In this document: positions 14,889 through 46,988 of the stretch, in pieces | How the letters are laid out: every line of letters begins with the position of its first letter | Numbering within the stretch: position 1 is the stretch's first letter | Virus record (IMG/VR): IMGVR_UViG_3300037851_000222 | Location: 30,994-94,993 of that record | Direction: 5' to 3' (one strand) | DNA length: 64,000 nt | Origin: a virus | The notes under the pieces: model-generated | Databases searched by the model: none | Told to the model about the DNA's origin: nothing | The model's input: the letters and a program-made list of their open reading frames with translations, nothing else | Made by a program: the position numbers and the translations under genes

Positions 14889-15560
14889 TTAAAATGCCAC
14901 GCCGATTTTCGGCCCGCCGGCTTGGTTGAGGGGGCGCCAGGAGTAGCCCTTGAGGCACACGTCCACGTCGGTCGAGCCCACGGCGGCGACAGCGCGGCGC
15001 ACCATGAAGGTGATGCGATCCTCGCGCCAGGACTCGGCCAGGATGAAGGTGCTGGCCGGCAGGACCAGGGTGCCGCGCTGCTCCGCGATGTCTTGCAGGC
15101 CCGGCACGGCCGAGCCGTTCTTGCACACTTGGAACAGGATGCTGCCGTCGTAGGTGTAGAGCGGGTCGAGGACGTTGAACCCGTAGCCCGTGATCCGCAC
15201 GCCCCGCCCCTCGGGCATGGGCACGGTCAGGGCCACGGCGTAGGCGCCGGCCGCAGCCGGGACGGTGACGCGGGCCGACAGGTCGATGGGCTGGGACCAG
15301 TAGTGCGGAGCGTTGTAGGCCGGCTCCGCGGCGGTGAAGTTGGTGTTCTCCAGCAGCTTGACCATGCGCTTCATCAGGAAGGCCACCTCGGCCGCCAGCG
15401 CCGGGGGTACGCCGCTGCCGCGTTGCGGCGCAGTGCCCTGGGCGATGGCGCGGAACCCATCGGGCGGATTGTAGGCCTCGGCGCTACGCCGCCCGTTGGG
15501 GTTCGCTTGGGTGGATTGCGGGGCGCCACCACCCTGGAGGTAGTCCATGTAGGGGTCCAC
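14889..15560 (-). CDS. Beta-sandwich (jelly-roll-like) virion protein
   Basis: MPEGRGVRI and terminal VCLKGYSW strand. Confidence 0.5.
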   Translation of the reverse strand: MDPYMDYLQGGGAPQSTQANPNGRRSAEAYNPPDGFRAIAQGTAPQRGSGVPPALAAEVAFLMKRMVKLLENTNFTAAEPAYNAPHYWSQPIDLSARVTVPAAAGAYAVALTVPMPEGRGVRITGYGFNVLDPLYTYDGSILFQVCKNGSAVPGLQDIAEQRGTLVLPASTFILAESWREDRITFMVRRAVAAVGSTDVDVCLKGYSWRPLNQAGGPKIGVAF

Positions 15561-15572
15561 CTACGGCTCCGA

Positions 15573-16109
15573 TCAGACGTTCGGGGTGTAGCCGTAAATC
15601 TTGAAGCCCAGCAGCGTGAAGAACACGTCATTGTCCGCACCCGACAGGTCGGTCAGGTCGAACGAGACGGTCGTGTTCGCCGGTAGCAACAGGGGCTTCG
15701 GCAAGATGTCGGGACGCTCGGCGGTGCCGACGAACGCCGCGCTGTGGACGGCGCGGTTGTTCAGTTGGCGGTCGCTGGCGTCGATGCGGGTGTCGATCAG
15801 GTAGGCACCGGTCGAGGCACCGTTGACGTAGCGGGCGATGAAGGCCGCGTCGGCGGTGATCTTGATGGTGGCCGTGGCCTGGCCGTTGGCCGCGAGGGCA
15901 TTGCCCAAGCGGCTCGACAACTCAAAGCTGTACGCATACGGCAGCACGTTGGCCGCCGGGTACGCTCCGAGGATGTCGAACAGGGCCTGGCGGATGCTCG
16001 CCAAGCCGAGCATGTTGGCCAGAGCCTCGGGCTGGAGGCTGCGGCCGATTTGCGCCATCTCGGGCGGCATCGGGATTTGACCCTTGCCGGGGAGCATGCC
16101 AGAGTCCAT
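15573..16109 (-). CDS. Jelly-roll-like minor capsid/penton candidate
   Basis: First gene of its operon, AAGGAGGT RBS; PKPLLLPANTTVSF and FTLLGFKI parallel the 51422 protein. Confidence 0.55.
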   Translation of the reverse strand: MDSGMLPGKGQIPMPPEMAQIGRSLQPEALANMLGLASIRQALFDILGAYPAANVLPYAYSFELSSRLGNALAANGQATATIKITADAAFIARYVNGASTGAYLIDTRIDASDRQLNNRAVHSAAFVGTAERPDILPKPLLLPANTTVSFDLTDLSGADNDVFFTLLGFKIYGYTPNV

Positions 16110-16181: not shown

Positions 16182-16901
16182 AGAGAATGCCAAGCGTTTC
16201 TTTGATTTATGACGCTTCATCGCCTTAACGTACTTCTCGACCCCCGCATCGGTGGTCAGGTGTGCATAGAGTTTCACCGCGCTGCGAATGGACTCGCAGC
16301 GACGATGGAACTTGGCGGTGGGCAGCACGATGTCCTGACCATTGCGGATGACGACGTGGATGCCGACTGGCTTTTGCTCAAAGAACGGGTAGCGCGGGTT
16401 GTTCTTGACGCCCCGCAGGATTTCCTCCGTCAGGCCGACCTTCATTACTCGGCCGGCGCTGTCCCGCAGCCCCTCGGGGTGGTCGACGGACGGCGAGACC
16501 CAAGCCCTGATCCGCGTCCGCCCCGCCAGTATGTGGGCCACCAGCCGCCGATGGCCGTCGATCACCCGCAGGGTGCCCGCGTCGGTCTGGATGACGTGGA
16601 TGGGCGCGAGCCGCTTGCCCGAGCGCAACTGCTGCGCGTAGGCCAGGGCGTGCGCCTGCTTGGTCGGGTGCAGGTGCTGCCACACCTCGTCGCCCTTGCG
16701 TCCGTAGGTCAACTCCGGGGCCTGCAAGTCGCGGATCCGCACGGAGCGAAGCTGCTCGATCTCGTGCCCGTAGGGACCGGCGACCGCGTCCCGCCGCCAC
16801 GTCCCGAGAGGGTAATTCGGCACCGGCCGGCGCTTGCGGCTGTGGCCGGCGGGGGCCTTGCGGGCGTAGGCTTGGAGGGAGAGGTAGCGGGGGTTGGTCA
16901 T
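16176..16901 (-). CDS. ParB/Srx-like domain protein flanked by NP motifs
   Basis: PIHV...VIDGHRRL; MTNPRY and KNNPRY. Confidence 0.7.
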   Translation of the reverse strand: MTNPRYLSLQAYARKAPAGHSRKRRPVPNYPLGTWRRDAVAGPYGHEIEQLRSVRIRDLQAPELTYGRKGDEVWQHLHPTKQAHALAYAQQLRSGKRLAPIHVIQTDAGTLRVIDGHRRLVAHILAGRTRIRAWVSPSVDHPEGLRDSAGRVMKVGLTEEILRGVKNNPRYPFFEQKPVGIHVVIRNGQDIVLPTAKFHRRCESIRSAVKLYAHLTTDAGVEKYVKAMKRHKSKKRLAFSV

Positions 16902-17989
16902 CCCGGCACCTCCGGTGCGGCGTCCGATGCCTTGACCCTGACGTTCTTGACCACCCGCACCCGGTCAGCGGGGATGGTGCTCTGCCGCAGTCGCAGGATG
17001 TTCGACTCGGGCGCGGCACCCTTGTCCATGACCCAAGTGTCTTCCTCGACGGTGAAGTCTAAGCCCTCCATGTCGATTTCCAACAGGGACACGACACCAG
17101 GGCGCAGGAAGTCATCGCGCAGCAGGAGCGGGATCCATTGCAGGGCGTCACCAGGCGTTGGCGCGACGTGGACCTCGTAGGTCTCGCCGTCGAAGTGCCG
17201 CAGCCCTAGGTACTGCCCCTTCTTCACCCGGCCGCCAACTACTCGATACCAGACGGTCTGTGGCCCCGTCACGACCTCGTCCAGGGCACGCTTGGAGGCT
17301 GCATAGGCCTTGTTGCCGGCCACCTGCTGCGCGACCCACGCCACCACCTCGTCGGTGGGCGCGCCCTCAAACTGCTTCAGGTAGGCTCGCAGGGCGTCGT
17401 CACGGGTGAACGTCGCGGCCCACTCACGCATGATGGGGATGTCGCGGAACCGCTCGGGGAGCCGGCTGGGGTTGGTGATCACGGCTGTCCTCCGGCTGAA
17501 GGCGCCGGTGTTGGCCACCGCCTTGACCTGCTTGGGGTCAAGGACCGCGAGGAAGGCCGGATCGCGGACGGGCACCTTGCCCAGCATGAGGCTTTGCCCC
17601 GGCACCATGACCCCGTCGTGCCCGACCAGCGCGGTGTCGCGCCAAGCCGCCCACCACTGGCTGTCGCCGCCGTGGGCGCCTCGCAGGTCGTTCCATCGCT
17701 CCCTCGTCAGGCGCTTCGGCCGCAGGATGCGCAGGTAGCACGCCATTACCTTGCCGCCGTAGATGCCGGCGAAGTCCCGGTCGTCGGTGAACCAGAACCC
17801 GACTTTGCTCGACCCCTTCCCGGTCTTGGTGCGGTCGAAGCGGTCGAACGCGGCGGTCGTGCCGTGGTAGACCACCAGCGGACGCCCCTGTTCATCAACC
17901 GCTTTGGATTTACCGAACCATTGCCAGAAGTTGACGATACCCGCCTCGGTAGGGTGGATCAACTGCCCGAGACTGTTGTGGCGGATCAC
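16898..17989 (-). CDS. ADP-ribosyltransferase-like (ART-PolyVal-type) protein plus second module
   Basis: NFWQWFGKSK..GRPLVVYHGT, GFWFT, DPKQVK, then VITNP. Probable GTG start at 17989 by alignment with the 18463 ORF. Confidence 0.7.
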   Translation of the reverse strand: MIRHNSLGQLIHPTEAGIVNFWQWFGKSKAVDEQGRPLVVYHGTTAAFDRFDRTKTGKGSSKVGFWFTDDRDFAGIYGGKVMACYLRILRPKRLTRERWNDLRGAHGGDSQWWAAWRDTALVGHDGVMVPGQSLMLGKVPVRDPAFLAVLDPKQVKAVANTGAFSRRTAVITNPSRLPERFRDIPIMREWAATFTRDDALRAYLKQFEGAPTDEVVAWVAQQVAGNKAYAASKRALDEVVTGPQTVWYRVVGGRVKKGQYLGLRHFDGETYEVHVAPTPGDALQWIPLLLRDDFLRPGVVSLLEIDMEGLDFTVEEDTWVMDKGAAPESNILRLRQSTIPADRVRVVKNVRVKASDAAPEVPG

Positions 17990-17999
17990 AACGCCCCGA

Positions 18000-18401
18000 T
18001 CAACCGACCTGCGAGGCCCGCTTGGTGTAGCCGCTGTCGGACTGCCGGGAGGGCTGGTCAATCACCTTGAGGTTGACGTGACTCTCGTTGGCCTTGTCGT
18101 GCAGGCAGGGGCGGTTCTTCATCACGAGAGTATTCTGGTTGATGGCCTTGATCAACTCCCGCTGCACCATGGAGTTCTCGCGGATCGCCTGCACCACTTG
18201 ATCTGTCATCTCGGTCTGCTTGGCGCCGAAGTCGGTTGCCAGCTTCAGCCGATCCTCTTCCGTGTCGTTCAGGCGCTTGGCCAGACGCTCCCACTGGACA
18301 CGGAACCAGACATTTTGCTTGTAAATGTACCACATAAGGACACCAGCGATACTTGCATAGCCGCCAAATGATTTGGCGACTTCCAGCAGTTGCTCAAGCA
18401 T
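18000..18401 (-). CDS. Holin-like small membrane protein
   Basis: One N-terminal TM followed by coiled coil; has its own promoter. Confidence 0.45.
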   Translation of the reverse strand: MLEQLLEVAKSFGGYASIAGVLMWYIYKQNVWFRVQWERLAKRLNDTEEDRLKLATDFGAKQTEMTDQVVQAIRENSMVQRELIKAINQNTLVMKNRPCLHDKANESHVNLKVIDQPSRQSDSGYTKRASQVG

Positions 18402-18462: not shown

Positions 18463-19212
18463 TCACTCGCCCTGGCGGTGTCTCTGTACGACCTTCCAAC
18501 CCTTAGTCTTACAGGCCTTTATCTGTTGATTGGCCTCGGCGTAGGTCAGCTTGGACCGCCGCGCCAGGCCCCATTGGTAGCCGTCGCTCTCGCGCGCCGT
18601 GCAGAGCACCTTGGTCTTGCTGACCCGTCCGTAGCGCCGGGTTGCGAGGCCGCTGGGGGCCTCCAGGGTGATGGAGGTGAGCTTGGTAGGTGGGTTGGTG
18701 ATCACAGGGTCGCTCGGGTCGAAGGTGCCACGGTTGCCGATAGCGGACTTGATTTGGGTGGGGTCGAAGACGATGTAGTAGGTCTCGCCGCTATCTTCGT
18801 CGTACAACCAAACCCCGTCGCAGCCCTCATCTTTGGCTGCCAGCATCAACTCGGCCTCGATCTTGACTTGCCCCAAGTCACCGGGTTCCAAGTCATATTC
18901 GTAGGGGTTTTCCATCTTCAGGTAGACAGGCATGACGTTGTGACCAAAGTATTTTGCAGTTTCTTCATCAGGACTGAAGAAAAACCCTGTAGTATGCTTG
19001 GGGGCTTGAACCCCACGCTTCGCAACGGTGGCACCAAAGTCTTTGTCCGAAAACTGATTGAACTTGGCATTGGTCCCGTGGTAGACGACCAGGGGCACAG
19101 GGCCTTGTTTGGTTATCGTCGTGACCTTGCTGTCCCCGAACCACCGCCAGAAGTTGACAATGCCGGCTTCTGTGGGGTGGATCAGTTTTCCAAGCGAGTT
19201 GTGGCGGATCAT
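18463..19212 (-). CDS. ADP-ribosyltransferase-like (ART-PolyVal-type) protein
   Basis: NFWRWFGDSK, VVYHGT, GFFFS, YIVFDPTQIKSAIGNRGTF, then VITNP. Confidence 0.75.
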   Translation of the reverse strand: MIRHNSLGKLIHPTEAGIVNFWRWFGDSKVTTITKQGPVPLVVYHGTNAKFNQFSDKDFGATVAKRGVQAPKHTTGFFFSPDEETAKYFGHNVMPVYLKMENPYEYDLEPGDLGQVKIEAELMLAAKDEGCDGVWLYDEDSGETYYIVFDPTQIKSAIGNRGTFDPSDPVITNPPTKLTSITLEAPSGLATRRYGRVSKTKVLCTARESDGYQWGLARRSKLTYAEANQQIKACKTKGWKVVQRHRQGE

Positions 19213-34052: not shown

Positions 34053-34532
34053 ATGAACAAGCCCACTCTGCTGCAACCCATGGCGATGGATCTTTACGAT
34101 ACCGTGGAGATCGAACCCGGCTCACCCCCCGGCAATGTGGATTTCTTCCCAAGCGGCGGCAAAGACCGCCTCAAGACCAACGTCGAAACCAATGGGATGC
34201 TGTTTTATCCCAAAGAGTTCTATATCGACAGCATCAAGGTCCAGTTCGAGAGTCGACCCGAGTCCCATTTCCTATTGGGGGCCGTCATCAGGCTGATGGT
34301 TGCGGAGAGTTGCTGGTTCTGCGCGCCGCTTCTGACCATGGACCGTATCGCAGCCCCTCCAGGTCCGGTGATGCCGTTTGACCTGGGTTGGGTGAAACGC
34401 CTCGACCCGGCAGTCCATATCGCATCACAGCAGTCGTTCGTTGTCTCAATCGACAACAACCACCCGCTCGACACCAGCCTTGTCGTCGCCCGTGTGTCGC
34501 TGTGCGGGCGCCTCATGCGCGAGGTGCAGTGA
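34053..34532 (+). CDS. Paralogue of the putative major capsid protein
   Basis: LYD..FF..TN..G.L..PK.F...I and L.G.L.RE(V/I)Q shared with 51422..51973. Confidence 0.7.
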   Translation: MNKPTLLQPMAMDLYDTVEIEPGSPPGNVDFFPSGGKDRLKTNVETNGMLFYPKEFYIDSIKVQFESRPESHFLLGAVIRLMVAESCWFCAPLLTMDRIAAPPGPVMPFDLGWVKRLDPAVHIASQQSFVVSIDNNHPLDTSLVVARVSLCGRLMREVQ

Positions 34533-35722: not shown

Positions 35723-36679
35723 ATGTTCCCGGTCAACACGTCACTCGTGAACCGCTCGCGCTTCCTCCCCGGCCTCGGGGTGGACATGAACGATTGCAGC
35801 ACTGCGGACGCAGGACCGTGCCGAGGCAAGACGGGCGCTGAGTGTGGCCAGTGCATGACCACGTTGATCGCAGCGGCACAGAGTGCAGACCGGTCGCAGA
35901 CCTACACCGGCATGTCGGCCGAAGAGCGCGCCCAAGCGATGCAAAAATCCATCATGAAGTCGGCCATCACCGGGGCAGGGACGCAGGTTGGCATCCAAGT
36001 GGTCCTCAGCGTCATCCCAGTAGTCGGACAGGCCCTGGCCGCGGTGGCGGGTGCCATCAGCTTCTTCGGCGGCCAGCGATACGAGAAGAAGACCAAGGAC
36101 ATGGTCGAAGAGAAGAAGCGCGACTTGGAGGCATACGTCGCCGGCAAGCAACAGACACTGAACGCGGCCGTTGATGGCGCCTACAAGGCGGCGTGGTCAC
36201 AGGCCCTGACCCTGGCCAAGAGCCCCTACCCCATCGTCTTCGACCAGCACACGGAGCAGCAAGTCTTCATGCGCCGACCAATGAACGGATTAGGCATCAT
36301 CGACAAGCTGACTGGGCGCGACACCTTCACCAAGGCCAGGTCGCAGATGGACGCCTTAGTGCGGGAACAGAAGCAGAAGCTGGACATCGAACTGGACCCC
36401 ATCATCACCAGGGCCAACAGCACTGACTTCCGCAACGTCCTAGCCAAATCCATCGCCGTCAATCTGCGGCAACTGCCGGAGTACAAGGGCTTCGCCAAAT
36501 ACTTCGACCGCACCGGACCACAAAGCTACACCGCCAACGTCGCAGACCCGACCAGCCCCGCCTACACCCCCGGCGCCATCGTGGACCCCAGTAAGATTTC
36601 CGTCGACACGTCGCTGTGGAAGAAACTCACCATCGGTGGCGCCGCGATCACCGGTGGTATTTTCCTGATGAGGATGTGA
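35723..36679 (+). CDS. Tail-anchored membrane protein with PGLG/NGLG motifs
   Basis: Internal hydrophobic hairpin (VIPVVGQALAAV) and C-terminal TM. Confidence 0.7.
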   Translation: MFPVNTSLVNRSRFLPGLGVDMNDCSTADAGPCRGKTGAECGQCMTTLIAAAQSADRSQTYTGMSAEERAQAMQKSIMKSAITGAGTQVGIQVVLSVIPVVGQALAAVAGAISFFGGQRYEKKTKDMVEEKKRDLEAYVAGKQQTLNAAVDGAYKAAWSQALTLAKSPYPIVFDQHTEQQVFMRRPMNGLGIIDKLTGRDTFTKARSQMDALVREQKQKLDIELDPIITRANSTDFRNVLAKSIAVNLRQLPEYKGFAKYFDRTGPQSYTANVADPTSPAYTPGAIVDPSKISVDTSLWKKLTIGGAAITGGIFLMRM

Positions 36680-36680
36680 C

Positions 36681-37424
36681 ATGACCCCTTTCCCCGTCCG
36701 CACCCGTGTCGTCCGCACCAACGCCCTGCAAGGGCTGGGTGCTTTTGAGTCTCCCCAGATACGGAACTTCAAGCAGAGCCACCCGCCCCTGGTGCCGTTC
36801 ACCACCGACAGCGTGGGTGACGCCATCCGCCGGAGCGATGCGGCGGCCAACGACCTCTTCAACCAGATCGCCAGCGTGACCAACGAGCACAACGTCAAGC
36901 TGGCCGCCGGGCCGCAGGGGCGCATGGTCAACGTGGGCGGTGCCGGGAAAATGGGGATGGACAGCAAAATGGAGTGGCAGGGCGAGTCCTTCGCCTCATG
37001 GTCCTCGGCCGTCAACGCCCTCGCCAGCCAACGCCAGTCTCTGATCGGTCGCTTCAACAACGCCCTCAACGTCGCCAAGGGGCTGCTGACGCAGCCCGAG
37101 ACCTACCAAGGCTACATCATCAAACCTGAATCGGTCGGCGGTCAGGTCCGCTACGATGTCTACAACGCAGACAACTCGCTCTTCTACAAGGGCGCCGAGT
37201 CCCGTGAGGCTGCCAGGTCGGCGGTCGACACCTTCCTCGCCAAGCAGGCCGAGGAGCAGCGCGAGAGCGAGCGCGCCAGCGGCGAAGCCGCCGCTCGCGC
37301 TGACGCTGCGGCGGCCGTGACCGACGCCCAGACCGCCAGCGGGACGGCCGCGCCGGCCAGCACCGCCACCAAGGCCGTGCTCATCGGCGGGGCCGCCCTG
37401 GCGGCGTTCGCCCTGTTCAAGTAA
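36681..37424 (+). CDS. Tail-anchored membrane protein (QGLG; ETYQGY module)
   Basis: C-terminal LIGGAALAAFALFK. Confidence 0.7.
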   Translation: MTPFPVRTRVVRTNALQGLGAFESPQIRNFKQSHPPLVPFTTDSVGDAIRRSDAAANDLFNQIASVTNEHNVKLAAGPQGRMVNVGGAGKMGMDSKMEWQGESFASWSSAVNALASQRQSLIGRFNNALNVAKGLLTQPETYQGYIIKPESVGGQVRYDVYNADNSLFYKGAESREAARSAVDTFLAKQAEEQRESERASGEAAARADAAAAVTDAQTASGTAAPASTATKAVLIGGAALAAFALFK

Positions 37425-37434
37425 GGAACTGACC

Positions 37435-38358
37435 ATGCCCACCACCTCCACCGTCCTCCGCACCATCCCCGCCCCGTGGATCTTCCAGGGCCTGGGAGGC
37501 ACCCCTGACGAGGACCGCGCCGCTGTTCACGCCCGCCTGAACGCGGCGCTTGCGTCCGAGTCCCAGGCCTGGAACGCCCTGCGCCGTTCGTTCCCTGCGC
37601 AGGTCGCGTCGTTCGGCGCGACGATGAAGAGCACCACTGCCAAGAAGAACGACGCCCTCGCCGCCGTACAGTTGATGGGCAAGGCCCCCACACTGGTCAA
37701 CATCAACGCCGCCGGTGCCGCCGTGACGTTCTACGAGCGTGAGGTGGCGTCCCTGGCGCAGCGGGTCAACGCGATGGTGGCCGAGAAGGAGGCCAAGGAA
37801 AAAGCCGGGCAAGCTGCCAAGGACCAAGCTGCTGCTCTCAAAAACGAATGTCTCGAATTAAGCAATACCCTCACAAAAAAAATACCAGATATGAATGCTT
37901 ATTTAACTACCTTAAAAAAGTATGTTAGTGAAGACGATATGACTAAATCAATGGACAGTGCAACCCAAGACATCGCCCTTCTAACCAGACTGCGCGACGG
38001 GTTAAAACACGCTTTAGAAGATGTCGACAAAGAAGCAGTACCGCCCAACAACGGCGCCACCAATGGCAGTGCCGGCAACACAGAGAAAGAATTGGAGACT
38101 TACCAGGGCTACCATATCTGGCAGGCCGCGCTGACGAGCAAACAAGAGCCGGCCATCTTCATCAAAGACTTGGCCAACGACATGACCGTTCAGGTCATGC
38201 CACCTGGCTCGGGCGTCGTGCAGGCCAAGGAATGGATCGACGCGAGGGTCAAGTCATCTGGCGGTACCACGACCCCCGCCGAACCCACCAAGTCGAACGC
38301 CATGCCCCTGCTGCTCATCGGCGGCGGACTGCTGGCTGCGTTCGCGTTGAAGAAGTGA
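37435..38358 (+). CDS. Tail-anchored membrane protein (QGLG; ETYQGY module)
   Basis: C-terminal LIGGGLLAAFALKK. Confidence 0.7.
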   Translation: MPTTSTVLRTIPAPWIFQGLGGTPDEDRAAVHARLNAALASESQAWNALRRSFPAQVASFGATMKSTTAKKNDALAAVQLMGKAPTLVNINAAGAAVTFYEREVASLAQRVNAMVAEKEAKEKAGQAAKDQAAALKNECLELSNTLTKKIPDMNAYLTTLKKYVSEDDMTKSMDSATQDIALLTRLRDGLKHALEDVDKEAVPPNNGATNGSAGNTEKELETYQGYHIWQAALTSKQEPAIFIKDLANDMTVQVMPPGSGVVQAKEWIDARVKSSGGTTTPAEPTKSNAMPLLLIGGGLLAAFALKK

Positions 38359-38368
38359 GAGGTTGACC

Positions 38369-38635
38369 ATGGCAGTCAAGTTTGCCTTCGTAGTCCCAGC
38401 AATCGGAGGGGTTGTGGGCTTCCTTCTTGGCAAGAGCATGTCCAAGAAGGGCGGCAAGGCAGTGCCGATCATCAGCGGACTCGCCGGTGCCGTAGGGATG
38501 ACCTACTGGGCCATGGCGGAAAGCTCCAGTGGTGGCGGTCCCCTGACCAGCGCCCTGAAGGCCATTATCCCCGCAGGGACGCCGACGACGGTGCCCTTGT
38601 CTACTGGTCCTGCTCCCGTGCCTCGGAGGAACTGA
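38369..38635 (+). CDS. Small two-TM membrane protein
   Basis: Gly-rich hydrophobic helices. Confidence 0.6.
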   Translation: MAVKFAFVVPAIGGVVGFLLGKSMSKKGGKAVPIISGLAGAVGMTYWAMAESSSGGGPLTSALKAIIPAGTPTTVPLSTGPAPVPRRN

Positions 38636-38637
38636 CC

Positions 38638-39480
38638 ATGCGCCGCATCATCTACGCCCCCCGGGCCTTCACCTACGCCAACGCCCCCGTGCCGATGCGC
38701 GCCGTGCCGCCGGCTGGTTGGGGCTACTCCCCACCGCGGGCGCGGCACGTCCGCGGGGTCTACGCTGGGAATCACGGGCTGAGCGGTTTCCCCTGCTCTT
38801 GCCGGGTCGTCAAGACCAACCCGCTGGGCGAACAACCCACGCAGCAGAACGCGGCGGCCCTGGCCCTGTTCCACAAGGCTGAGTTCGCGGCCAAGGCCCC
38901 GGCGTGGCTGGCCCTGGACCCGCTGACCAAGTCGGTGGTGGACGAGAAATGGTCGGCCAAGATGCAGGCCAGGATGACCAACAACGCGGCGGACAACGAG
39001 CGCATGATGCTCGCCAACCTGACCGAACTGAACGAGATGGCCGTGGTGGAGAAGTCCAGCCCGACCGGCACCATGTCCACCAAGGACGTGGAGACCTACC
39101 GGGGCTGGAAGATCACCGCCACCAACCTCGACCGCACCACCACCCGCTACATCGCGGAAAGCCCCGCCGGCAAGACCCTGACCCGCGAGGCGGCGTGGAA
39201 CGCCCTGCCGGCCGCCCTGGCCGAACTGAAGGGCGACATCGACAAGGCCGAGGGTGCCGTTCCGATGCCCGTCAGCACGCCCCCGCAAATGGCGAAGGAG
39301 TCCTGGTGGAAGAGCATCACGGATATGCTGCCGACGCTCCCCGTCACGCCGCTGCCGACCCCCAGCACCCCCGCGCCGGCACCGACCCCCGCGCCGGCCG
39401 TGGTCGAGAAGACGACCATCCCAACCCCAGTCATCGTCGGCGGTGCGGCCCTGGCCGCCCTGCTGCTCCTGCGTCGATGA
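38638..39480 (+). CDS. Tail-anchored membrane protein (ETYRGW module)
   Basis: Pro/Thr linker; IVGGAALAALLLLRR. Confidence 0.7.
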   Translation: MRRIIYAPRAFTYANAPVPMRAVPPAGWGYSPPRARHVRGVYAGNHGLSGFPCSCRVVKTNPLGEQPTQQNAAALALFHKAEFAAKAPAWLALDPLTKSVVDEKWSAKMQARMTNNAADNERMMLANLTELNEMAVVEKSSPTGTMSTKDVETYRGWKITATNLDRTTTRYIAESPAGKTLTREAAWNALPAALAELKGDIDKAEGAVPMPVSTPPQMAKESWWKSITDMLPTLPVTPLPTPSTPAPAPTPAPAVVEKTTIPTPVIVGGAALAALLLLRR

Positions 39481-39875
39481 ACGTCCTGGTGGTCGAGGAC
39501 GACGCCAGCCGAGTCCGGGCCTTCCGCCGGGGGCTCGTCGGACACACCGTGACCGTCACGGACAACCCCGACGAGGCCGTGGCGCTAATGATGACCCGCA
39601 ACTTCCACGCCGTGTTTCTCGACTACGACTTGGACTACTCCAAGGCCCCGCATCGCAAGGTTGGTGAGATGATCCCCAAGATTGAGGCCTGCCCACCCTG
39701 CATCCGCAACATCGACTGGTACATCCACAGCCTGAACGACGCGGGGGCGTCCTACATGGCGGCGCGGTTGGCCCGAGTCGGGGCGCGGGTGCGACGGTGG
39801 CCTTTCGCTTGGCAAGACCCCACGCTGGACGTTCGTATAAACAACGGTAAAGTGGGCAATCGTCATGCAAGCTGA
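39477..39875 (+). CDS. Stand-alone receiver-like domain (cyclic-phosphate-processing REC type)
   Basis: VLVVEDD, FLDYDL, IHSLN..GA..M. Confidence 0.7.
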   Translation: MNVLVVEDDASRVRAFRRGLVGHTVTVTDNPDEAVALMMTRNFHAVFLDYDLDYSKAPHRKVGEMIPKIEACPPCIRNIDWYIHSLNDAGASYMAARLARVGARVRRWPFAWQDPTLDVRINNGKVGNRHAS

Positions 39876-40428
39876 CCCCAACCGGACTTACGCCGCCGTC
39901 GCGCAGACGGTCATGTCGCTTTCACCTGAGCAGCGGCAGCGATTCCTGGCGGAAGCGCAGCGAAAGTATCAGGCACTGCCGGCTCGGTATCGCCGCATGG
40001 CCGATCAATACATCGCTCGCTTCGCGGAGCACGATGTCCGCGCCGCCCCCGGGCTGGGCAGCGCGGGAGCCGTCGCCACGGCAGCCAACACGGCAAGTTG
40101 GGTGAACAGCCTGGCCACCATCCTGCAATCCGTCACTGCCGTTGCCGGGGTCGCCATGGCCTACAAAGGCATGCAGGACGACAAGCAGGCCAAGCGCGAC
40201 CAAGCCGAGAACGAGCGTCAACTGATCGAAGCGCAGAAGCGGTCGATCGACGCCCAGACCGCCGCCGTGCAGGCGCAGGCCGAGGCAACAAGTCGGTCCA
40301 TCACGCCGAGTGCGCCCGGTGCGGCGGCCGGCGGGGGCATCAGCCAGACGACTTGGTTGCTGATCGGCGGCGGCGCCCTGGCGGCTGTCGGTGCCATCGT
40401 GCTGCTGGCGAAGAAGGGGTCCAAGTGA
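39865..40428 (+). CDS. Tail-anchored membrane protein (PGLG)
   Basis: Coiled coil; LLIGGGALAAVGAIVLLAKK. Confidence 0.7.
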   Translation: MQADPNRTYAAVAQTVMSLSPEQRQRFLAEAQRKYQALPARYRRMADQYIARFAEHDVRAAPGLGSAGAVATAANTASWVNSLATILQSVTAVAGVAMAYKGMQDDKQAKRDQAENERQLIEAQKRSIDAQTAAVQAQAEATSRSITPSAPGAAAGGGISQTTWLLIGGGALAAVGAIVLLAKKGSK

Positions 40429-40985
40429 GCTACCCCCAGCCCTACAACATCCGCACCGCATCGAACGAGGTCCGCGACCGCTGGTGGCTGGACGCCGGTG
40501 CCGACGCCGGCCGCTCGCTGACGCGGACGCAGTTGATCGGGCTGCACTACTGGAACGATGGCAACTCCGAGGGCTGGGAGGACGCCACCACCGCTGAACT
40601 GCGTGAGGCGTGGGTGGAACTCCTGCGGGGCGAGGGGTACCTGACCAACCCCCGGCGCAACCCCTACGCCAACGAGCATGCTGCCCGTCTGCACGACCCA
40701 CGCTACTTCCACACCTTCCGCCGGAAGAACGTCAAGAACGGCACCGTTGGCCTGATCCTAGGCAAGCCCTGGGGTCAGCGGACCATGGTGCTGCAATCGG
40801 TGCGCTTCCGCGCCGCCGCGTTCACCCCGGCCCAAGCACGAGCCTGGTTGACGAAACACAAGCTGAAGGCCGTGCTGGAGCCGGCGACCACCCGTGATAG
40901 GGCCTCGCTGTTCCGCGCCGAAGTGGCGCGGGCCAGGCGCACGGCTCGCAAGACCACCAAGCGCCGCGCCCGGCGCCGCGCCTGA
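40425..40985 (+). CDS. Basic NP-motif protein with PYANEHAARL module
   Basis: GTG start; LTNPRRNP boundary; Arg-rich tail. Confidence 0.65.
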   Translation: MSYPQPYNIRTASNEVRDRWWLDAGADAGRSLTRTQLIGLHYWNDGNSEGWEDATTAELREAWVELLRGEGYLTNPRRNPYANEHAARLHDPRYFHTFRRKNVKNGTVGLILGKPWGQRTMVLQSVRFRAAAFTPAQARAWLTKHKLKAVLEPATTRDRASLFRAEVARARRTARKTTKRRARRRA

Positions 40986-40996
40986 AGGATCACCCC

Positions 40997-41257
40997 ATGG
41001 CCAACCTCGGCTCGTTCCTGAACCAGTCCTACCTCGCCGCTGACAACCCCAACGAGGTCACGGCGGCTGACGCCGGGATCGCGCCGGTGGTGCCGGCCGT
41101 GACCCCCGATGAGGCGGCCCAAGCTGCCGCGACGACCGAGGCGGCCCAGGTCGCATGGCTCGATCAGGAACTGATCAAGGGCGTCCAGAACAAGTATCTC
41201 GCCATTGGTGCTGGCCTGCTGGTCGGTATCCTGCTGCTGAAGCGGAAGAAGGGCTAA
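40997..41257 (+). CDS. Small tail-anchored membrane protein
   Basis: MANLGSFLNQSYL; TM followed by KRKKG. Confidence 0.65.
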   Translation: MANLGSFLNQSYLAADNPNEVTAADAGIAPVVPAVTPDEAAQAAATTEAAQVAWLDQELIKGVQNKYLAIGAGLLVGILLLKRKKG

Positions 41258-41259
41258 CC

Positions 41260-41559
41260 ATGGCATTCCTCGGCCTGCTGCCGGACCAGGGAACGGTCAA
41301 GCTGAACCTCGATCCGAAGGACGTGGAGCGCGAGGCCATTGGCCGGTCGCTCTCGCTCTTCGGCGGCACGATCAGCCTGATCGGCGCGGCGCTGATCTTC
41401 AGCGTCAACCCGGCGGCCAAGAAGGACGTGGCGGGAGTGGTCCCGCTGTTCAACAAGAACAAGACCCTGGCGATCATCGGCGCCGGTCTGGGCATCGCCG
41501 CCCTGGCCTACATCGGCATCGCCAAGAAGATGAACCAACGCTACACCAAAGGAGGGTGA
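41260..41559 (+). CDS. Two-TM membrane protein
   Basis: Start MAFLGLL. Confidence 0.6.
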   Translation: MAFLGLLPDQGTVKLNLDPKDVEREAIGRSLSLFGGTISLIGAALIFSVNPAAKKDVAGVVPLFNKNKTLAIIGAGLGIAALAYIGIAKKMNQRYTKGG

Positions 41560-41560
41560 C

Positions 41561-42268
41561 ATGGCTGCCCCGAAGAAGATCACCGCGATCCACACGATCT
41601 ACTGGGTTTCCTACGGCCCGGACGCCTACCACTGGCAGCACACGGTCAAGCGGATCGAGTCCCTGCGGGCGGCCAAGCAGGCCCTGGCCAACAAGCCGGC
41701 GTGGGGCAAGTCCTGGGTCGTCATGCGGAGCCGGGACACGATGTTCAGCCGAGTCGACATGAAGGTCGTCGCGGCCTCCGACTCGTGGACCAAGGAAATG
41801 GCGCAGCAGTTCATTGAGAAGCTGCGCCCGACGTGGAAGACGAACCCCAAAGGGCAGCACAAAGTCATTGAAGGGGTCAGCGGGTGCAAATGGCTGGTGC
41901 AACGCACGAACGACCGCCGCCCGTCGCGCAAGTGGAAACTGCTCAAGGCGCTCCCTCGGGGCGCTCGCACCACCAAGCGCGCCAACCCCAAGCGCGCCAC
42001 CAACACCGACTCGCGTCAAGGCCCTCCCCGTGCTGTCCGCGCCCCCACTTGGGCTGCGCCCAAGGGCGGCTGGAGCGTGGCTGGCACCGACTACGGATAC
42101 TTGCACAGCACAGGCGGGGAGGTCCGGGTCTGGCGCAGCCGCTCTGGTGCGGCGCGAGTGGCCAAACAGTACGCTCGCCGGAAGCAGACGACCAACCCCA
42201 AGAACCCCCCGATGTCCCAAGCCGAGGCCATGGCCATCCGGCGCATCCTGAAGAGGCATGGGTACTGA
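41561..42268 (+). CDS. Basic modular NP-motif protein
   Basis: KTNP, RANP, TNPKNP; ends NPPMSQAEA..RHGY. Confidence 0.7.
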   Translation: MAAPKKITAIHTIYWVSYGPDAYHWQHTVKRIESLRAAKQALANKPAWGKSWVVMRSRDTMFSRVDMKVVAASDSWTKEMAQQFIEKLRPTWKTNPKGQHKVIEGVSGCKWLVQRTNDRRPSRKWKLLKALPRGARTTKRANPKRATNTDSRQGPPRAVRAPTWAAPKGGWSVAGTDYGYLHSTGGEVRVWRSRSGAARVAKQYARRKQTTNPKNPPMSQAEAMAIRRILKRHGY

Positions 42269-42270
42269 CC

Positions 42271-43197
42271 ATGGACACCAGTTCCGTCGCACGGCAGTTG
42301 CGGGGCCTGATCTATGATCGGATCATGGCAGGGGTGGCCACGCCCGCCGATAAGCGCCGTGCCGACGAACTGGCGGAATCCATCAAGGTGCCTCTGCCGA
42401 GCAGTGCGAAAACCCTGGGCGACCTGGACAAGATCGCCAAGCGTGCCTTCAACCGCATGGACAAGTACGATGCGGCGCTCGAATACGGCAGTGCCGAACA
42501 CGAACTGACCAAAGTGCCGCACCTTCCCGTGCCGCGCCTCCATGACCCCGTCGAGCCATGGAGAATGATCGAAGGGGAAGACGAAGGCGAAGAGTGGAAG
42601 AAACCACGGAGCAACCCCCTGAGCAAGACCAAGATCGGCCGCTTCACCGTCGTCTACCCGAAGCGGAAGAACCCCGGCCACACCATCCGCCAAACGCCCC
42701 GCGACTGGCGCGATGCCTACAACCGGGCGCGTGACGCCGAGACCGAGGCCCAGCGCCGTTCGCCGGCCGGCAAGATGTCGGCTGCGCGGCGCAACGCCAA
42801 AACCCGCTACGTCATGCAGGGCCGGGCGGCGGTCGACCGTGGTGAGTGGCGCCTGACGGCGTGCCCCTACGCTGCTGGAACCTGGCGTGCCGAGGCCTGG
42901 AAGCAAGGCGCGTGGGCGCGACAGCAGGAGTTGCGCAAGCCGCGCACCAACCCCGGCCGTCTCGCACGCCTGAAGGCTGCGGCTGCGCGGGCAAGAAACC
43001 GCAGCCTCAATGACCTGCTGCTCGGCAAGTGCCTCGCCCACCCTGCCAAGACCCGCCGTTTAGACCGAGAAGAGGAACGTGCGCTGGCGAAGGTCGCGGT
43101 CGAAGAAGCCCGTATCGCCAAGCGCAAGTCCAACCCCCCGATGTCCAAAGCCGAGGCTGCCGCCCTGAAGCGCGTCCTCCGTCGTCACGGCTACTGA
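42271..43197 (+). CDS. Basic modular NP-motif protein
   Basis: RSNP, RKNP, RTNP, KSNP; ends NPPMSKAEA..RHGY. Confidence 0.7.
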   Translation: MDTSSVARQLRGLIYDRIMAGVATPADKRRADELAESIKVPLPSSAKTLGDLDKIAKRAFNRMDKYDAALEYGSAEHELTKVPHLPVPRLHDPVEPWRMIEGEDEGEEWKKPRSNPLSKTKIGRFTVVYPKRKNPGHTIRQTPRDWRDAYNRARDAETEAQRRSPAGKMSAARRNAKTRYVMQGRAAVDRGEWRLTACPYAAGTWRAEAWKQGAWARQQELRKPRTNPGRLARLKAAAARARNRSLNDLLLGKCLAHPAKTRRLDREEERALAKVAVEEARIAKRKSNPPMSKAEAAALKRVLRRHGY

Positions 43198-43213
43198 TCG
43201 AAAGGATCACCAC

Positions 43214-43447
43214 ATGGCCCGCATCTCGTTCCGCACCCGCACCGGCAAGAAGGTCTCCTTCACCGTGGGTGGCCGCAAGTCGTCCAAGCGTCGGTCGCCC
43301 AAGGCGACGGCGTTCCCCTTCGCCTTCGCCAAGGGCGCACCCAAGAAGCGCCGCAAGGGCATGAAGGCGGGCAACGTCTATCAGATGGACGGCAAGAAGT
43401 ACGTCGCCTGCCGCGACGGCATGCTCCGCAGGGTCCGTGCCATCTAG
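43214..43447 (+). CDS. Small very basic nucleic-acid-binding protein
   Basis: K/R-rich; ISFRTRTGKKVSF. Confidence 0.65.
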   Translation: MARISFRTRTGKKVSFTVGGRKSSKRRSPKATAFPFAFAKGAPKKRRKGMKAGNVYQMDGKKYVACRDGMLRRVRAI

Positions 43448-43450
43448 CGT

Positions 43451-43478
43451 TTGCGTCCGTATAAACGCAAGGTAGGAT
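43451..43478 (+). promoter_or_regulatory. Promoter with GTATAAAC box in the spacer
   Basis: TTGCGT, 16 bp containing CGTATAAACG, TAGGAT; ATG 8 bp downstream. Confidence 0.7.
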
Positions 43479-43485
43479 CAAGACC

Positions 43486-45504
43486 ATGCCCGTGAACGGC
43501 CAAGTGCCTGTGCAGCGTTCCGTCCTCCCAGCCGGCGAGGCCGGTGTGGACGCGACCGTGATGAAGATGGTCGAGATGGCCAAGGGCCGGTACGGGGCCA
43601 AGTCGGCCAAGATCCGTGCCCTGGCCATCGACATCCTCAACGCGGCCCGAGTGCCGGAAAAGGATTACTACGGCGAGGCCGTGGCGATCTTTGAGTGGGT
43701 GCGCGACAACATCCGCTACCTCAAGGATCCCATCGGGCAGGAGACTCTATCCTACCCTGAAGAGTTGGCCTTCAACAGCAAGGCTGCGGACTGCGACGAC
43801 AAGACGATGCTCGTCATGGCGCTGCTGGGCAGCATCGGCATCCAGTCTTACCCGGTCGTCGTGGGCGTGCGGCCGGATATGTTCAGCCACGTCTACCTCC
43901 ACGCCGTCATCCCTCCCGGCAAGCACCGCATGGCCGGGCAGGTCGTCCCGATGGACCCGATCATGCGGGAGTGGCCGGCGGGCAAGGAGGCGCAGGCGCC
44001 TCGTGTCCAGAAGAAGAAAACCTACCCTCAACTCGCAGGACTGGACGGCATGGACAACTTCATCCCCGGCATCGGTGGCGACATGCTCCCTGGCATGGGC
44101 TTGGGCAGCTACGTCGCCGCTCCCTCCTACCTCGACACCGAGAACTCCCAAGCCGCCAAGCTCCTGGCCAGCGGCAGCGCGGGCGGCACCGCCCAAGTGC
44201 GCGCCGACCGCAACTCCATGGTCAACAAGGACGGCACGGTGGCCACGACCACCCGCTCCGTCCAGGGTCTGGAGGGCGCGGACGCCATGTTCGCTGACCG
44301 GACCCCGGTGATCGCCCCGAAGTGGGGTCAGCCCGGTGCGTTCGTCACCGGCCGTGAGGACAAGTTCGGCCGCATCTGGAACAACTCGCCCCAGATCCTC
44401 GACGCCCGCGATACCGGCAGCAGCGGCCCGATGATCGGCCGCCAAGCCGAGGCGATGACCCGCGTCCTCCAGTCGGAGCGCGCCAAGGAAATCCCCACCC
44501 TGATGGGCACCAAGACCGTGGTGGGCCAGGGCAGCAACAAGCGGACCATCGTCACCGTGCAGTCGCCGCAAAAGGCCGCCAAGGGCCGCCCCGCGCCGAT
44601 GCTCGACCGGCCCATGGCCGACGCCGTCCGCGAGATCAAGGGCCTCGGCACCTACCTCGGCGCCATGCAGCAATGCCTGGCCGGCTGCGGTGACTGCGGC
44701 GGCCTCGGCTACGCTTGGGACGGCGCGCCGTCCAAGAACAACGTCGTGGTCGACACAGCCCTGGTGTCGTTCTGGGCGCGGCTGAAGTCTGACCTCATGA
44801 CCGCCTCGGCCAAGGTCATCGACCAGTACGCTGCCCAGTACCCGACCGCCGAGGCCAAGCAGGACGCCCAGATCGCCAAGGAAGCCGCCAAGGAGGCCGA
44901 GAAGGTCGCCAAGGAAGCCGAGAAGGCCGAGAAGACCGTCGCCGCTACGCCCGAGGCCAAGGCCGCCGTCAACGACGTGAAGGTCAAGCTGGCGACCGAG
45001 AACGCCACCAACGGGTTCGGCTTTATGATTGAGGGCTTGGGCGCCCTGCCGGTCAACGCCGTCAAGGCCACCCTGCCGGTGGGCCTGGTCGGCACGATGA
45101 TGACCCGCGAGCGCATCCAGACCCAGCAGCAACTCGACCAGGCCACCGCCGATCAGCAACTGATCATGGCCAAGATTGAGATGCTGCGCCGGAAGCTGGC
45201 CGAGATCGTCAACCGCGAGCAATCACGGACGAACCGCCCCGAGGCGATGCTTTACCAGGGTCCGGTCAAGGGCGCTTCCGCTGCCACAGCACCCCAGTCG
45301 TGGGCAGCCCGCCACGTCACGGCCACTACCACGGTCGCCAAACCATCCGCTGTGTCGCAACTGCAAAATGCCTTCAAGACCCGCCAAGCCAGCGTCCAAG
45401 GTCTGGGCGAGGGCATCGTCGACACCATCAAGAAGCCCATGACCATGGCCCTCCTGGCGGCCGGCGTCCTGGGCGCGCTCTACCTCCGCAAGAAGGCCAA
45501 GTAA
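43486..45504 (+). CDS. Transglutaminase-like Cys-His-Asp enzyme (candidate maturation protease) with GLG-punctuated stalk and C-terminal TM
   Basis: FEWVRDNIRYLKDP, ADCDD, SHVY, PMDP triad pattern. Confidence 0.8.
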   Translation: MPVNGQVPVQRSVLPAGEAGVDATVMKMVEMAKGRYGAKSAKIRALAIDILNAARVPEKDYYGEAVAIFEWVRDNIRYLKDPIGQETLSYPEELAFNSKAADCDDKTMLVMALLGSIGIQSYPVVVGVRPDMFSHVYLHAVIPPGKHRMAGQVVPMDPIMREWPAGKEAQAPRVQKKKTYPQLAGLDGMDNFIPGIGGDMLPGMGLGSYVAAPSYLDTENSQAAKLLASGSAGGTAQVRADRNSMVNKDGTVATTTRSVQGLEGADAMFADRTPVIAPKWGQPGAFVTGREDKFGRIWNNSPQILDARDTGSSGPMIGRQAEAMTRVLQSERAKEIPTLMGTKTVVGQGSNKRTIVTVQSPQKAAKGRPAPMLDRPMADAVREIKGLGTYLGAMQQCLAGCGDCGGLGYAWDGAPSKNNVVVDTALVSFWARLKSDLMTASAKVIDQYAAQYPTAEAKQDAQIAKEAAKEAEKVAKEAEKAEKTVAATPEAKAAVNDVKVKLATENATNGFGFMIEGLGALPVNAVKATLPVGLVGTMMTRERIQTQQQLDQATADQQLIMAKIEMLRRKLAEIVNREQSRTNRPEAMLYQGPVKGASAATAPQSWAARHVTATTTVAKPSAVSQLQNAFKTRQASVQGLGEGIVDTIKKPMTMALLAAGVLGALYLRKKAK

Positions 45505-45515
45505 GGCTGATCGCC

Positions 45516-46124
45516 ATGCAGCAAGCCATCCCCATCGTCGCCGCCCAGGCTCCCGCCCGGCTGCCGACCCCGGTGGTGAACACCCTCCACGCCCGCGAGC
45601 CGGTCGACCTCAAGCCGGCGGGCAACACCGTGGCCATCACGACCACGGCGCAAAACCCGTTCGCCCTGCGGCAGTCGATCAGCGTCCGCACGCAGGCCAG
45701 CGGCGGCATGGCTCCGACCGCCCCGCAGGCGGCCCAGTCGCAGAGCCTGCTCACCCGGTTCATTCCGGGCATCGGTGAGGATCCGGCCAACACCGGCACG
45801 CCCGCCGTGCAGTCGCAGGCCCCGAGCGGCGGCGTGATGTCGGCCATCACCAACATATTCCAGACCGGGTCGAGCGCCTACGCCTCCCAGCAGGCGGCCA
45901 AGGCCGAGATCGCCAAGGCCGAGCAAGAGAAGGCCAAGGCTGAAGCCGAGGGCAACCGCACGGCTGCCATCCAGGCCCAAGCCCGTCTGGACGCCATCCT
46001 GGCCACCGCCGGCAAGGCCCAGCCCTGGCTGCTCTATGGCGGCATCGCCCTCCTGGGCGTGGCCGGCTTCCTGATGCTGCGCAACAAGCGCGCCGGTCGG
46101 CGCCTCACCGGTCGGCGTCGGTGA
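45516..46124 (+). CDS. Tail-anchored membrane protein (PGIG)
   Basis: Start MQQAIP; TM followed by basic tail. Confidence 0.7.
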   Translation: MQQAIPIVAAQAPARLPTPVVNTLHAREPVDLKPAGNTVAITTTAQNPFALRQSISVRTQASGGMAPTAPQAAQSQSLLTRFIPGIGEDPANTGTPAVQSQAPSGGVMSAITNIFQTGSSAYASQQAAKAEIAKAEQEKAKAEAEGNRTAAIQAQARLDAILATAGKAQPWLLYGGIALLGVAGFLMLRNKRAGRRLTGRRR

Positions 46125-46128
46125 TCCC

Positions 46129-46647
46129 ATGCTGAACGGCGTCCCCCTCGTCGGTGGCGTCATCCCTGTCCGAGGCGACCGGGCGGCCAGCCGCGTCATG
46201 CACCAATCCCTGCGGAGGGGGCGGCCGACGTGGAAGCTCCCCGGACGCCGCGTGCGGACGCTTCAGGTGTCCCGACCGGCCCCGCAGCAGGGCGGCGACA
46301 TCAACCCCCAGCCCGTTGAGGGCCTGGGCGTTGATCCCGCTTCGACCGCGCCCCAACCCCCGGGCTGGCTCCAGACCATCGTTGGGGTCGGCCAGAACGC
46401 CCTGCAACTGATGCAGGCCCGCGACGACCGCAAAGCCGAGGAGCGAGCCGCTGCCAACGCCCGAGCCGCTGCGGACCTCGCCGCCCGGCAAAGCCAACTG
46501 GAACAGACACAGATCGCCCAGGACCGCGGCTTGGTCGAGAAGCTGGCCGAGGCCTCCACCAAACGGACCCTCATCATCGGCGGCGTCGTCGCCGGTGTCG
46601 CTGCCCTCGGAATCATCGCCTACATGGCCACAAGGAAATCCAAATGA
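46129..46647 (+). CDS. Tail-anchored membrane protein (EGLG)
   Basis: LIIGGVVAGVAALGIIAYMATRKSK. Confidence 0.7.
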   Translation: MLNGVPLVGGVIPVRGDRAASRVMHQSLRRGRPTWKLPGRRVRTLQVSRPAPQQGGDINPQPVEGLGVDPASTAPQPPGWLQTIVGVGQNALQLMQARDDRKAEERAAANARAAADLAARQSQLEQTQIAQDRGLVEKLAEASTKRTLIIGGVVAGVAALGIIAYMATRKSK

Positions 46648-46988
46648 AGCGCGACATGAGCTACGCCCTCGATGGCGCCATGAGCACCCGCAACCAGGGG
46701 CAACTCGTCTCGACGCAGCGGGTCCAGACCCAGACCATGCGGACCCCTGGCCTCGTCGCCACCGGCGACCAGGGCGGCATGGGCAAGCCCCTGCCCACCG
46801 TGGGCACCAAGCCGGCCCAAGGCCTCGGCGCGTTCAGTCTGGAACTGCCCCTGGTGGGCACGGTCCACTGGCCGACCCTGGCGCTCGGTGTCATCGCCGG
46901 TGCGGCTGTCTGGTCGCTGACCTCGGCTCGCCGGCAGGCCTTCAAGCAACGGGTCGCGTCGAAGGCCGCCCAACTCGCCATGGGCTGA
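46644..46988 (+). CDS. Membrane protein (QGLG)
   Basis: TM near the C-terminus. Confidence 0.65.
   Translation: MKRDMSYALDGAMSTRNQGQLVSTQRVQTQTMRTPGLVATGDQGGMGKPLPTVGTKPAQGLGAFSLELPLVGTVHWPTLALGVIAGAAVWSLTSARRQAFKQRVASKAAQLAMG

Follow-up and report, generated by a model that had tools for sequence, protein, structure and literature searches.

The window analysed here is a stretch of 64,000 bases, corresponding to bases 30994-94993 of a 94,993-base IMG/VR virus record with a G+C content of about 63% and a CheckV completeness of 63%. Genes were called by third-position G+C. Positions 35723-46988 of the window, on the plus strand, carry a block of 17 closely packed genes, eleven of which (starting at 35723, 36681, 37435, 38638, 39865, 40997, 41260, 43486, 45516, 46129 and 46644) encode proteins that end in a C-terminal hydrophobic helix followed by Lys or Arg residues, the helix mostly containing GG, GxG or GxxG. 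One of the eleven, encoded by 43486-45504, is a transglutaminase-like enzyme. The unrelated membrane-anchored proteins and the anchored enzyme have in common a short tag, hydrophobic-x-Gly-Leu/Met/Ile-Gly, and the relation between the enzyme and this tag is the subject of the present analysis.

An earlier examination based on the letters alone (the sequence-only reading) had described about ten otherwise unrelated tail-anchored proteins sharing a GLG motif, with at least five copies of it in the enzyme. All of the sites that it quoted exist, including the copies in the enzyme. The xG[LI]G matches start at 35768, 36284, 36729, 37486, 40048, 45765, 46318 and 46818, which is three bases less than the coordinates of the earlier reading because the preceding residue is included here. 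With the helix removed, the anchored proteins show no BLAST similarity to one another, and paralogy among them was rejected on this ground. The described set is therefore real and comprises eleven proteins, but two members fit the description incompletely: the 280-residue tail-anchored protein of 38638-39480 has the anchor and no G[LIM]G, and in the protein of 35723-36679 the C-terminal helix is weak, with a hydropathy of 1.4, and has just one Arg after it.

In three of these proteins the tag ends a short N-terminal leader. The leader of the 318-residue membrane protein of 35723-36679, which also has an internal helix at residues 94-112, ends in LPGLG (residues 15-19, bases 35765-35779), and a second site, MNGLG, is found at residues 187-191. 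The corresponding sites are LQGLG (residues 16-20) in the 247-residue tail-anchored protein of 36681-37424, for which no Pfam or PHROG family was found, and FQGLG (residues 17-21) in the 307-residue tail-anchored coiled-coil protein of 37435-38358. Elsewhere the tag lies deeper in the protein, as APGLG at residues 60-64 in the tail-anchored protein of 39865-40428 (187 residues), as VEGLG at residues 63-67 in that of 46129-46647 (172 residues), and as FIPGIG at residues 82-87 in that of 45516-46124 (202 residues), where it follows a conserved N-terminal domain of 80 residues. In the 114-residue membrane protein of 46644-46988, AQGLG (residues 58-62) stands just ahead of the helix, and a basic tail of 25 residues follows. 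A hydropathy scan, made without a dedicated signal-peptide predictor, revealed no N-terminal hydrophobic segment in any of the anchored proteins. Sorting signals of the sortase, exosortase or rhombosortase kind (for example, GlyGly-CTERM) were rejected for this reason, no search for a sorting enzyme having been made.

The expected number of G[LIM]G was derived from within-protein shuffles (2000 for each set of proteins). In the block without the enzyme nine are observed against 2.08 expected, and in the enzyme seven against 0.74 expected, and none of the 2000 shuffles reaches the observed number in either set. The other 103 proteins of the record contain 22 against 25.8 expected, a number reached in 1625 of 2000 shuffles. 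In an unbiased count of all tripeptides in the block, GLG ranks at the top (12 against 1.4 expected; Poisson P ~3e-8), and the third most enriched tripeptide is TNP. Of the tag matches, 17 are in frame, the two alternative frames having 1 and 3, and the codons vary between the sites. Therefore, the signal lies at the level of protein; a repeat in the DNA was considered as its origin and rejected.

The catalytic domain of the enzyme occupies residues 1-185 (43486-44040) and has a transglutaminase core. The Pfam family PF01841 (Transglut_core) matches residues 57-140 with a score of 28.7 bits against a cut-off of 23. The catalytic residues Cys103 (43792-43794), His135 (43888-43890) and Asp157 (43954-43956) are invariant across alignments of 34, 71 and 31 sequences. 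An AlphaFold model of residues 1-240 has a predicted local distance difference test score (pLDDT) above 90 over the catalytic domain. In VIA-align comparisons this model gives a Z score of 13.3 to 3kd4, a putative protease (root-mean-square deviation 3.1, 146 residues aligned), and Z scores of 11-11.6 to factor XIII, TG2 and TG3; its Foldseek matches include the putative cysteine protease 3isr, TgpA, LapG, PeiW, PeiP and CPR-C4. By profile, by Cys-His-Asp order and by core fold, the enzyme belongs to the transglutaminase-like superfamily, as the sequence-only reading had proposed.

The remainder of the enzyme (residues 186-672, 44041-45504) is an extension with a coiled-coil stretch and a C-terminal helix, after which comes RKKAK; the anchor ascribed to the enzyme earlier is thus present. 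The extension carries the tags IPGIG (44062-44076), LPGMGLG (44086-44106), IKGLG, CGGLG, IEGLG and VQGLG, with five-residue sites after the first two at 44635-44649, 44695-44709, 45028-45042 and 45394-45408.

A collection of metagenome proteins contains 131 homologues of the enzyme, many of them on contigs of 70-115 kb. In 120 homologues, the region after the catalytic domain has 328 G[LIM]G against 74 expected, with the consensus [LVMI]-[APSN]-G-[LM]-G-[ADSE]. Two places upstream stands L, V, M, I or F in 83% of these tags, compared with a background of 22%. A C-terminal helix is found in 105 of the 120, and in 61 a tag lies 30 residues or less before the anchor. The tags cluster in three places: just after the domain (about residues 186-215), near residue 390, and close before the anchor. 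Some homologues are much longer (1153-1380 residues; L011 9989-14131, P0007 and P0084). In two of these long homologues, Pfam intein or homing-endonuclease domains are present. The match to the enzyme of the window is broken, in L011 9989-14131, directly after the catalytic Cys.

When viral contigs were searched with the single enzyme sequence, no related locus was obtained, and an alignment used as the query gave nine, all with the same layout as the window. In these nine contigs the enzyme is flanked by tagged tail-anchored proteins (e.g., FMPGMGE, DLAGLGD), and the gene order downstream is conserved through 49812-51227 to 51422-51973. The enzyme and tagged proteins occur together in every related viral contig examined, one of which has a G+C content of only 41%. 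The position of the tag is fixed in the orthologues of three neighbouring anchored proteins (45516, 46644 and 35723), including those from the contig at 41% G+C, while the flanks diverge. Thus, in eight orthologues of the 45516 protein P84 and G85 are invariant and F[IM]PG[IMV] is aligned in all; the orthologues of the 46644 protein have GLG, GMG, GLA or GLD at the aligned position ahead of the helix; and those of the 35723 protein in five related contigs (L004, L005, L007, L010 and L011) keep x-L-G at the aligned end of the N-terminal leader. The conservation of the motif and its co-occurrence with the enzyme, to which the sequence-only reading had pointed as checks, are both found.

In a collection of species-representative genomes, the closest loci (41-62% identity) are labelled Planctomycetota, and more distant ones come from many phyla. 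The distant enzyme often consists of the catalytic domain alone (175-190 residues), and such stand-alone relatives stop where the extension and first site of the fused form begin. At 60 of 80 genome loci a jelly-roll gene lies no more than 10 kb from the gene for the enzyme; 18 loci, in which the simple gene caller missed the enzyme, were not taken further. The downstream same-strand proteins at the genome loci contain 347 G[LIM]G against 196 expected, and a tag falls within the first 30 residues in 47 of 450 such proteins as against 13 of 526 others. Two leaders recur at the distant loci, MY[LIM]RT..GLGQ and MRYLSEDDVTQMMGIGYLGE, the former being carried by peptidoglycan hydrolases of the M15, SLT and VanY types. 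With a profile of the domain, 638 cluster representatives are retrieved at E ≤ 1e-30, and at E ≤ 1e-10 the number is 4414. Among 63 extended representatives, 44 are tail-anchored, and 53 tags are found against 17.5 expected.

One relative in the wider family, in L035, has a PF01841 score of 48 bits. L035 9400-20400 together with L094 1-1900 form an island of about 12 kb in a cyanobacterial chromosome of 6.1 Mb, with a suf operon downstream and host-like genes upstream. Its order is transglutaminase-like enzyme, small protein, jelly-roll A, GLG-repeat protein, jelly-roll B, and peptidoglycan hydrolases with MY..GLG leaders. In the scanned parts, which do not cover the host-like genes upstream, neither an ATPase nor an integrase or replication gene was seen. 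The island is possibly a provirus that has become defective, or else a particle system that was domesticated.

When the enzyme was compared with 50,697 phage records, the sole match was gp34 of SSIP-1 (Salisaeta icosahedral phage 1), a tailless, membrane-containing phage (NC_017983, 21296-22210; 32% identity over 138 residues, E value 3e-10, range 3e-10 to 4e-16). The GenBank annotation of gp34 is structural protein, and no described function was found for it in the literature. Like the enzyme, gp34 has a transglutaminase core and a C-terminal helix with GGG, with a GMG site between the two; and SSIP-1 gp36, gp52 and gp53 are helix-anchored and have G[LM]G at residues 17-31. The excess of tags in the late genes of SSIP-1 is marginal (11 against 6.1 expected, reached in 94 of 2000 shuffles), and the early genes show none (1 against 3.1 expected). 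The two viruses differ in size, gp34 having 304 residues and the enzyme 672, and the SSIP-1 genome having 44 kb as against a partial record of 95 kb. Apart from a methyltransferase segment, no further protein of SSIP-1 has a BLAST match in the record. The homology to gp34 and the jelly-roll neighbour described below make a membrane-containing virion plausible, in keeping with the internal membrane supposed in the sequence-only reading.

With the above results, the block may be read as the module for the virion membrane in a large virus that is tailless and has capsid proteins of the jelly-roll type. Each protein would be held in the viral membrane by its one C-terminal helix, with its bulk on the capsid side and its short basic tail toward the DNA. 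The N-terminal parts would lie on the cytoplasmic, capsid-facing side, because an N-terminal hydrophobic segment is lacking. Contact of the tail with DNA is suggested by the TNPRRRR ending that the post-helix tails of the relatives share with soluble basic proteins. The enzyme would be tethered on the same face of the membrane as the tag sites. We infer that it is a protease carried by the virion and that its cuts, made during assembly, would fall within [LVMI]-x-G-[LMI]-G; the example of adenain, the adenovirus protease, makes the bond joining L/M/I to the second Gly the likeliest one. Such cutting would strip leaders of 16-19 residues from the proteins of 35723, 36681 and 37435, would free the N-terminal domains of those of 39865, 45516, 46129 and 46644 from their anchors, and would release the catalytic domain of the enzyme from its own extension and anchor.

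We give an even chance to the reading that the enzyme is a maturation protease tethered to the membrane, with itself and its neighbours as the substrates cut at the tag. This reading is favoured because the co-occurrence of enzyme and tag spans long evolutionary distances; because tags lie at both boundaries that would free the catalytic domain; because the tags are at leader ends and in linkers, and the enzyme and the sites are expected on the same face of the membrane; because the enrichment in the record is confined to the block and the enzyme; and because the enzyme resembles transglutaminase-like enzymes in its fold and in its invariant Cys-His-Asp, with proteases among the matches. Also in its favour are the conservation of the tag in the homologues and in the orthologues of the neighbours, the end of the stand-alone relatives at the first site of the fused form, the tags and jelly-roll genes at the genome loci, the homology to SSIP-1 gp34 and the fit of the tag to the adenain rule. 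PRD1, which was not checked for a transglutaminase-like enzyme, has no enrichment (2 against 6.5 expected), and this too is on the side of maturation.

The comparison with adenoviruses is closer than the sequence-only reading had stated. The adenovirus protease follows the rule (M/I/L)XGX↓G (the arrow marks the cut), as at IVGL↓G in pVI (PMC4246237). Once the hydrophobic residue that lies two places upstream is counted in, the tag fits, in sequence, the five-residue rule of the site of adenain (MEROPS C5), with a hydrophobic P4, Gly at P2 and Gly at P1'; adenain has in addition sites of the form (M/I/L)XGG↓X. In adenoviruses, and likewise in the presumed virion proteins here, the site is borne by many unrelated proteins, including basic DNA-associated ones, and lies near termini. 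The enzymes themselves are different. Adenain is of clan CE with the order His-Glu-Cys, whereas the present enzyme has a transglutaminase core and the order Cys-His-Asp, is membrane-tethered and belongs to a virus of a prokaryotic host; and cleavage, in the present case, is a prediction. The adenain (PF00770) and Ulp1 (PF02902) profiles have no match in the 95-kb record, which is incomplete. Since the fold and the residue order differ and both profiles are empty, the enzyme is not an adenain, and a clan CE protease was rejected.

Several observations weigh against cleavage at the tag. The sequence-only reading had suggested modelling the catalytic domain with a GLG peptide; in the AlphaFold monomer the first sites (residues 196-211) have a pLDDT below 50 and are disordered, not docked in the active site. 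Past the first site, Y209, Y215 and D217 hardly vary and recall the GYVDAPAY repeats in the protein of 49812-51227, one copy of which the first site, GMGLGSYVAAPSYLD, resembles; this speaks for docking, either alongside cleavage or in its place. Three or more tandem tags are present in some relatives (GxDGLGN repeats in L035, and FMPGLGA three times over in L011 2709-3461), an arrangement more in keeping with a binding repeat than with a cut site. In the wider family, G[LIM]G is lacking in about 45% of the extended enzymes. P23-77, which was not checked for a transglutaminase-like enzyme, also has a mild excess (17 against 9.2 expected), several of its tags being inside hydrophobic segments.

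The foremost alternative, which we consider rather unlikely, is that the tag is a docking or loading signal that is left uncut. It would bind the capsid lattice or an assembly factor, and together with the Y-x-x-A-P-x-Y or YLD that frequently follows it would bring into the particle the membrane proteins, the lytic enzymes and, as one more cargo, the enzyme. Tandem copies of the tag, the triple GYVDAPAY repeats and the conservation of enzyme residues past the tag are what such a signal would lead one to expect, and so is the same leader on unrelated peptidoglycan hydrolases at the distant loci. In view of the tandem tags and the Y-x-x-A-P-S-Y-L-D element, docking therefore accounts for these features about as well as a cut site does. 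It leaves unexplained, however, why the tag keeps company, across very wide distances, with an enzyme whose Cys-His-Asp is catalytically intact, and why tags stand at the two boundaries where a cut would set the catalytic domain free. Loading and cutting, moreover, are not exclusive. In phage T4, the capsid-targeting sequences are short N-terminal leaders on unrelated cargo that end at a protease consensus; they both load the cargo and are removed by gp21, a serine protease of the herpesvirus-assemblin type that recognises L-x-E. The short shared leaders on unrelated proteins are alike in the two cases, and the protease type and the site differ, T4 being a tailed phage without a membrane.

It is distinctly doubtful, in our judgement, that the enzyme is a virion-borne endopeptidase or amidase of the cell wall, serving entry or exit, and that the GLG tags are unrelated to it, being, for example, hinges or a feature of membrane insertion. 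The transglutaminase fold includes cell-wall isopeptidases and amidases, so that the enzyme could act on the host wall, which is a further point against maturation at the tag. PeiW and PeiP, pseudomurein endoisopeptidases of archaeal viruses that cut isopeptide bonds of the cell wall, are among the fold matches; with these and with LapG the enzyme shares the core fold and the triad at a sequence identity of 12-15%. Wall-degrading enzymes borne by the particle are also annotated in membrane-containing phages (P7 of PRD1 and the virion-associated lysozyme of P23-77). The modules at the distant loci, however, already hold dedicated hydrolases of the M15, SLT and VanY types; and a hinge would need no hydrophobic residue at a fixed offset, nor would it lack enrichment in the other 103 proteins of the record. 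LapG itself is a soluble, calcium-dependent periplasmic protease that cuts one defined di-alanine site in a surface protein.

Finally, that the enzyme is a true transglutaminase, whose cross-links between the tagged proteins would give a stabilised layer, is very improbable (a cross-linker was the alternative offered by the sequence-only reading): in fold, factor XIII, TG2 and TG3 (Z about 11) are no more distant than proteases, but cross-linking is unsupported because the tag holds no conserved Gln or Lys, and the prokaryotic members of the superfamily with known function, such as LapG, PeiW and PNGase, are hydrolases.

A broader proposal, which we hold more tentatively than maturation by the enzyme itself, is that a large, undescribed lineage of tailless membrane-containing prokaryotic viruses uses an adenovirus-like code, hydrophobic-x-G-[LM]↓G, read by a non-homologous membrane-tethered protease of transglutaminase fold, with leader-GLG tags serving for both the loading and the cutting of membrane, core and lytic proteins. 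This lineage would take in SSIP-1 as well as viruses of at least 95 kb whose closest relatives are labelled Planctomycetota. No publication was found in the literature that pairs a transglutaminase-like enzyme with a GLG tag or describes such viruses, and we know of no maturation protease described for tailless membrane-containing viruses of prokaryotes (PRD1, PM2, the sphaerolipoviruses or SSIP-1, for instance). If the enzyme cuts at the tag, Gly-specific maturation by a cysteine protease would have arisen independently of adenain in viruses with jelly-roll capsids, or would be much older there than thought; the entry of soluble lytic enzymes and membrane proteins into such particles would be accounted for; and a simple sequence rule would be available for spotting virion proteins in thousands of uncharacterised viral contigs. 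SSIP-1 is cultivable, so that the idea is directly testable.

Downstream of the block, 51422-51973 (+) encodes a single jelly-roll protein of 183 residues, the most conserved gene of the module and a candidate capsid protein by its predicted structure. Its 130 homologues, 46-77% identical to it, are found on contigs that also carry the enzyme. The model is a jelly roll with a pLDDT of 86.5. Its best VIA-align matches are capsid proteins of membrane-containing viruses (Helvetiavirae, Portogloboviridae), with Z scores in the middling range: 8.6 to SPV1 (145 residues aligned), 7.4 to HHIV-2, 6.8 to HCIV-1 and 6.5 to P23-77 VP17. A paralogue lies at 34053-34532 (+). Jelly-roll-like genes are also found at 14889-16109 (-); the product of 15573-16109 ends in ..LLGFKIYGY, which is like the second jelly-roll type of the distant loci (..HGYKILG).

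The gene at 49812-51227 (+), beyond the range of the sequence-only reading, encodes a basic membrane protein that is kept in six related contigs. Its N-terminal half is protamine-like, extremely basic and punctuated by NP; membrane helices follow, then three GYV[DN]AP[SA]Y repeats (GYV[DN]AP[SA]YQG), with QGIGAYLDQNYLEKSYLDV at the C-terminus, the protein ending in GIGAYLDQNYLEKSYLDV. The protein may link genome, membrane and capsid.

The remaining genes of the block encode small or soluble proteins, and no PHROG family was found for any block protein except a receiver-like one. The small tail-anchored membrane protein of 40997-41257 begins with MANLGSFLNQSYL, and the small membrane protein of 41260-41559 has two helices and orthologues in L005, L007, L010 and L011. 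The soluble protein of 40425-40985, with an Arg/Lys-rich C-terminus, is probably a DNA-binding core protein. Three basic soluble proteins are encoded by 41561-43447, and the likeness of the first two (41561-42268 and 42271-43197) is confined to a C-terminal peptide of 21 residues, NPPMS.AEA.A..R.L.RHGY. Many basic proteins of the relatives terminate in TNPRRRR. The exception in the PHROG search, at 39477-39875 (+), is a gene for a receiver-like domain amid the membrane-protein genes (cREC_REC 28.6 bits; Response_reg below cut-off).

The source of the record is an uncultured large virus, probably tailless and lipid-containing, and the labels of the nearest contigs suggest a host in the Planctomycetota. 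Terminase, portal, HK97 capsid and A32 ATPase (PF04665) profiles have no match in the record, nor does SSIP-1 gp40 as a query; with the record only 63% complete, these empty searches are a weak result. The record encodes a family A DNA polymerase, an SNF2 helicase, a UvrD-type helicase and a D5-like primase-helicase, together with a phosphoadenosine phosphosulfate (PAPS) reductase, a DUF1599 protein, several DNA methyltransferases, a serine recombinase and two ART-PolyVal proteins.

Outside the window, 6-7 kb upstream at about record bases 24000-25100, a minus-strand cluster encodes helix-anchored proteins with MGGLG, MPGIGGYV and LPGMG, one of which begins with MSSYLDDNYL, resembling the YLD element. 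Within the window, the two ART-PolyVal proteins are encoded by paralogous ADP-ribosyltransferase genes at 16898-18061 and 18463-19212 (-), whose N-termini are near-identical, MIRHNSLG.LIHPTEAGIVNFW.

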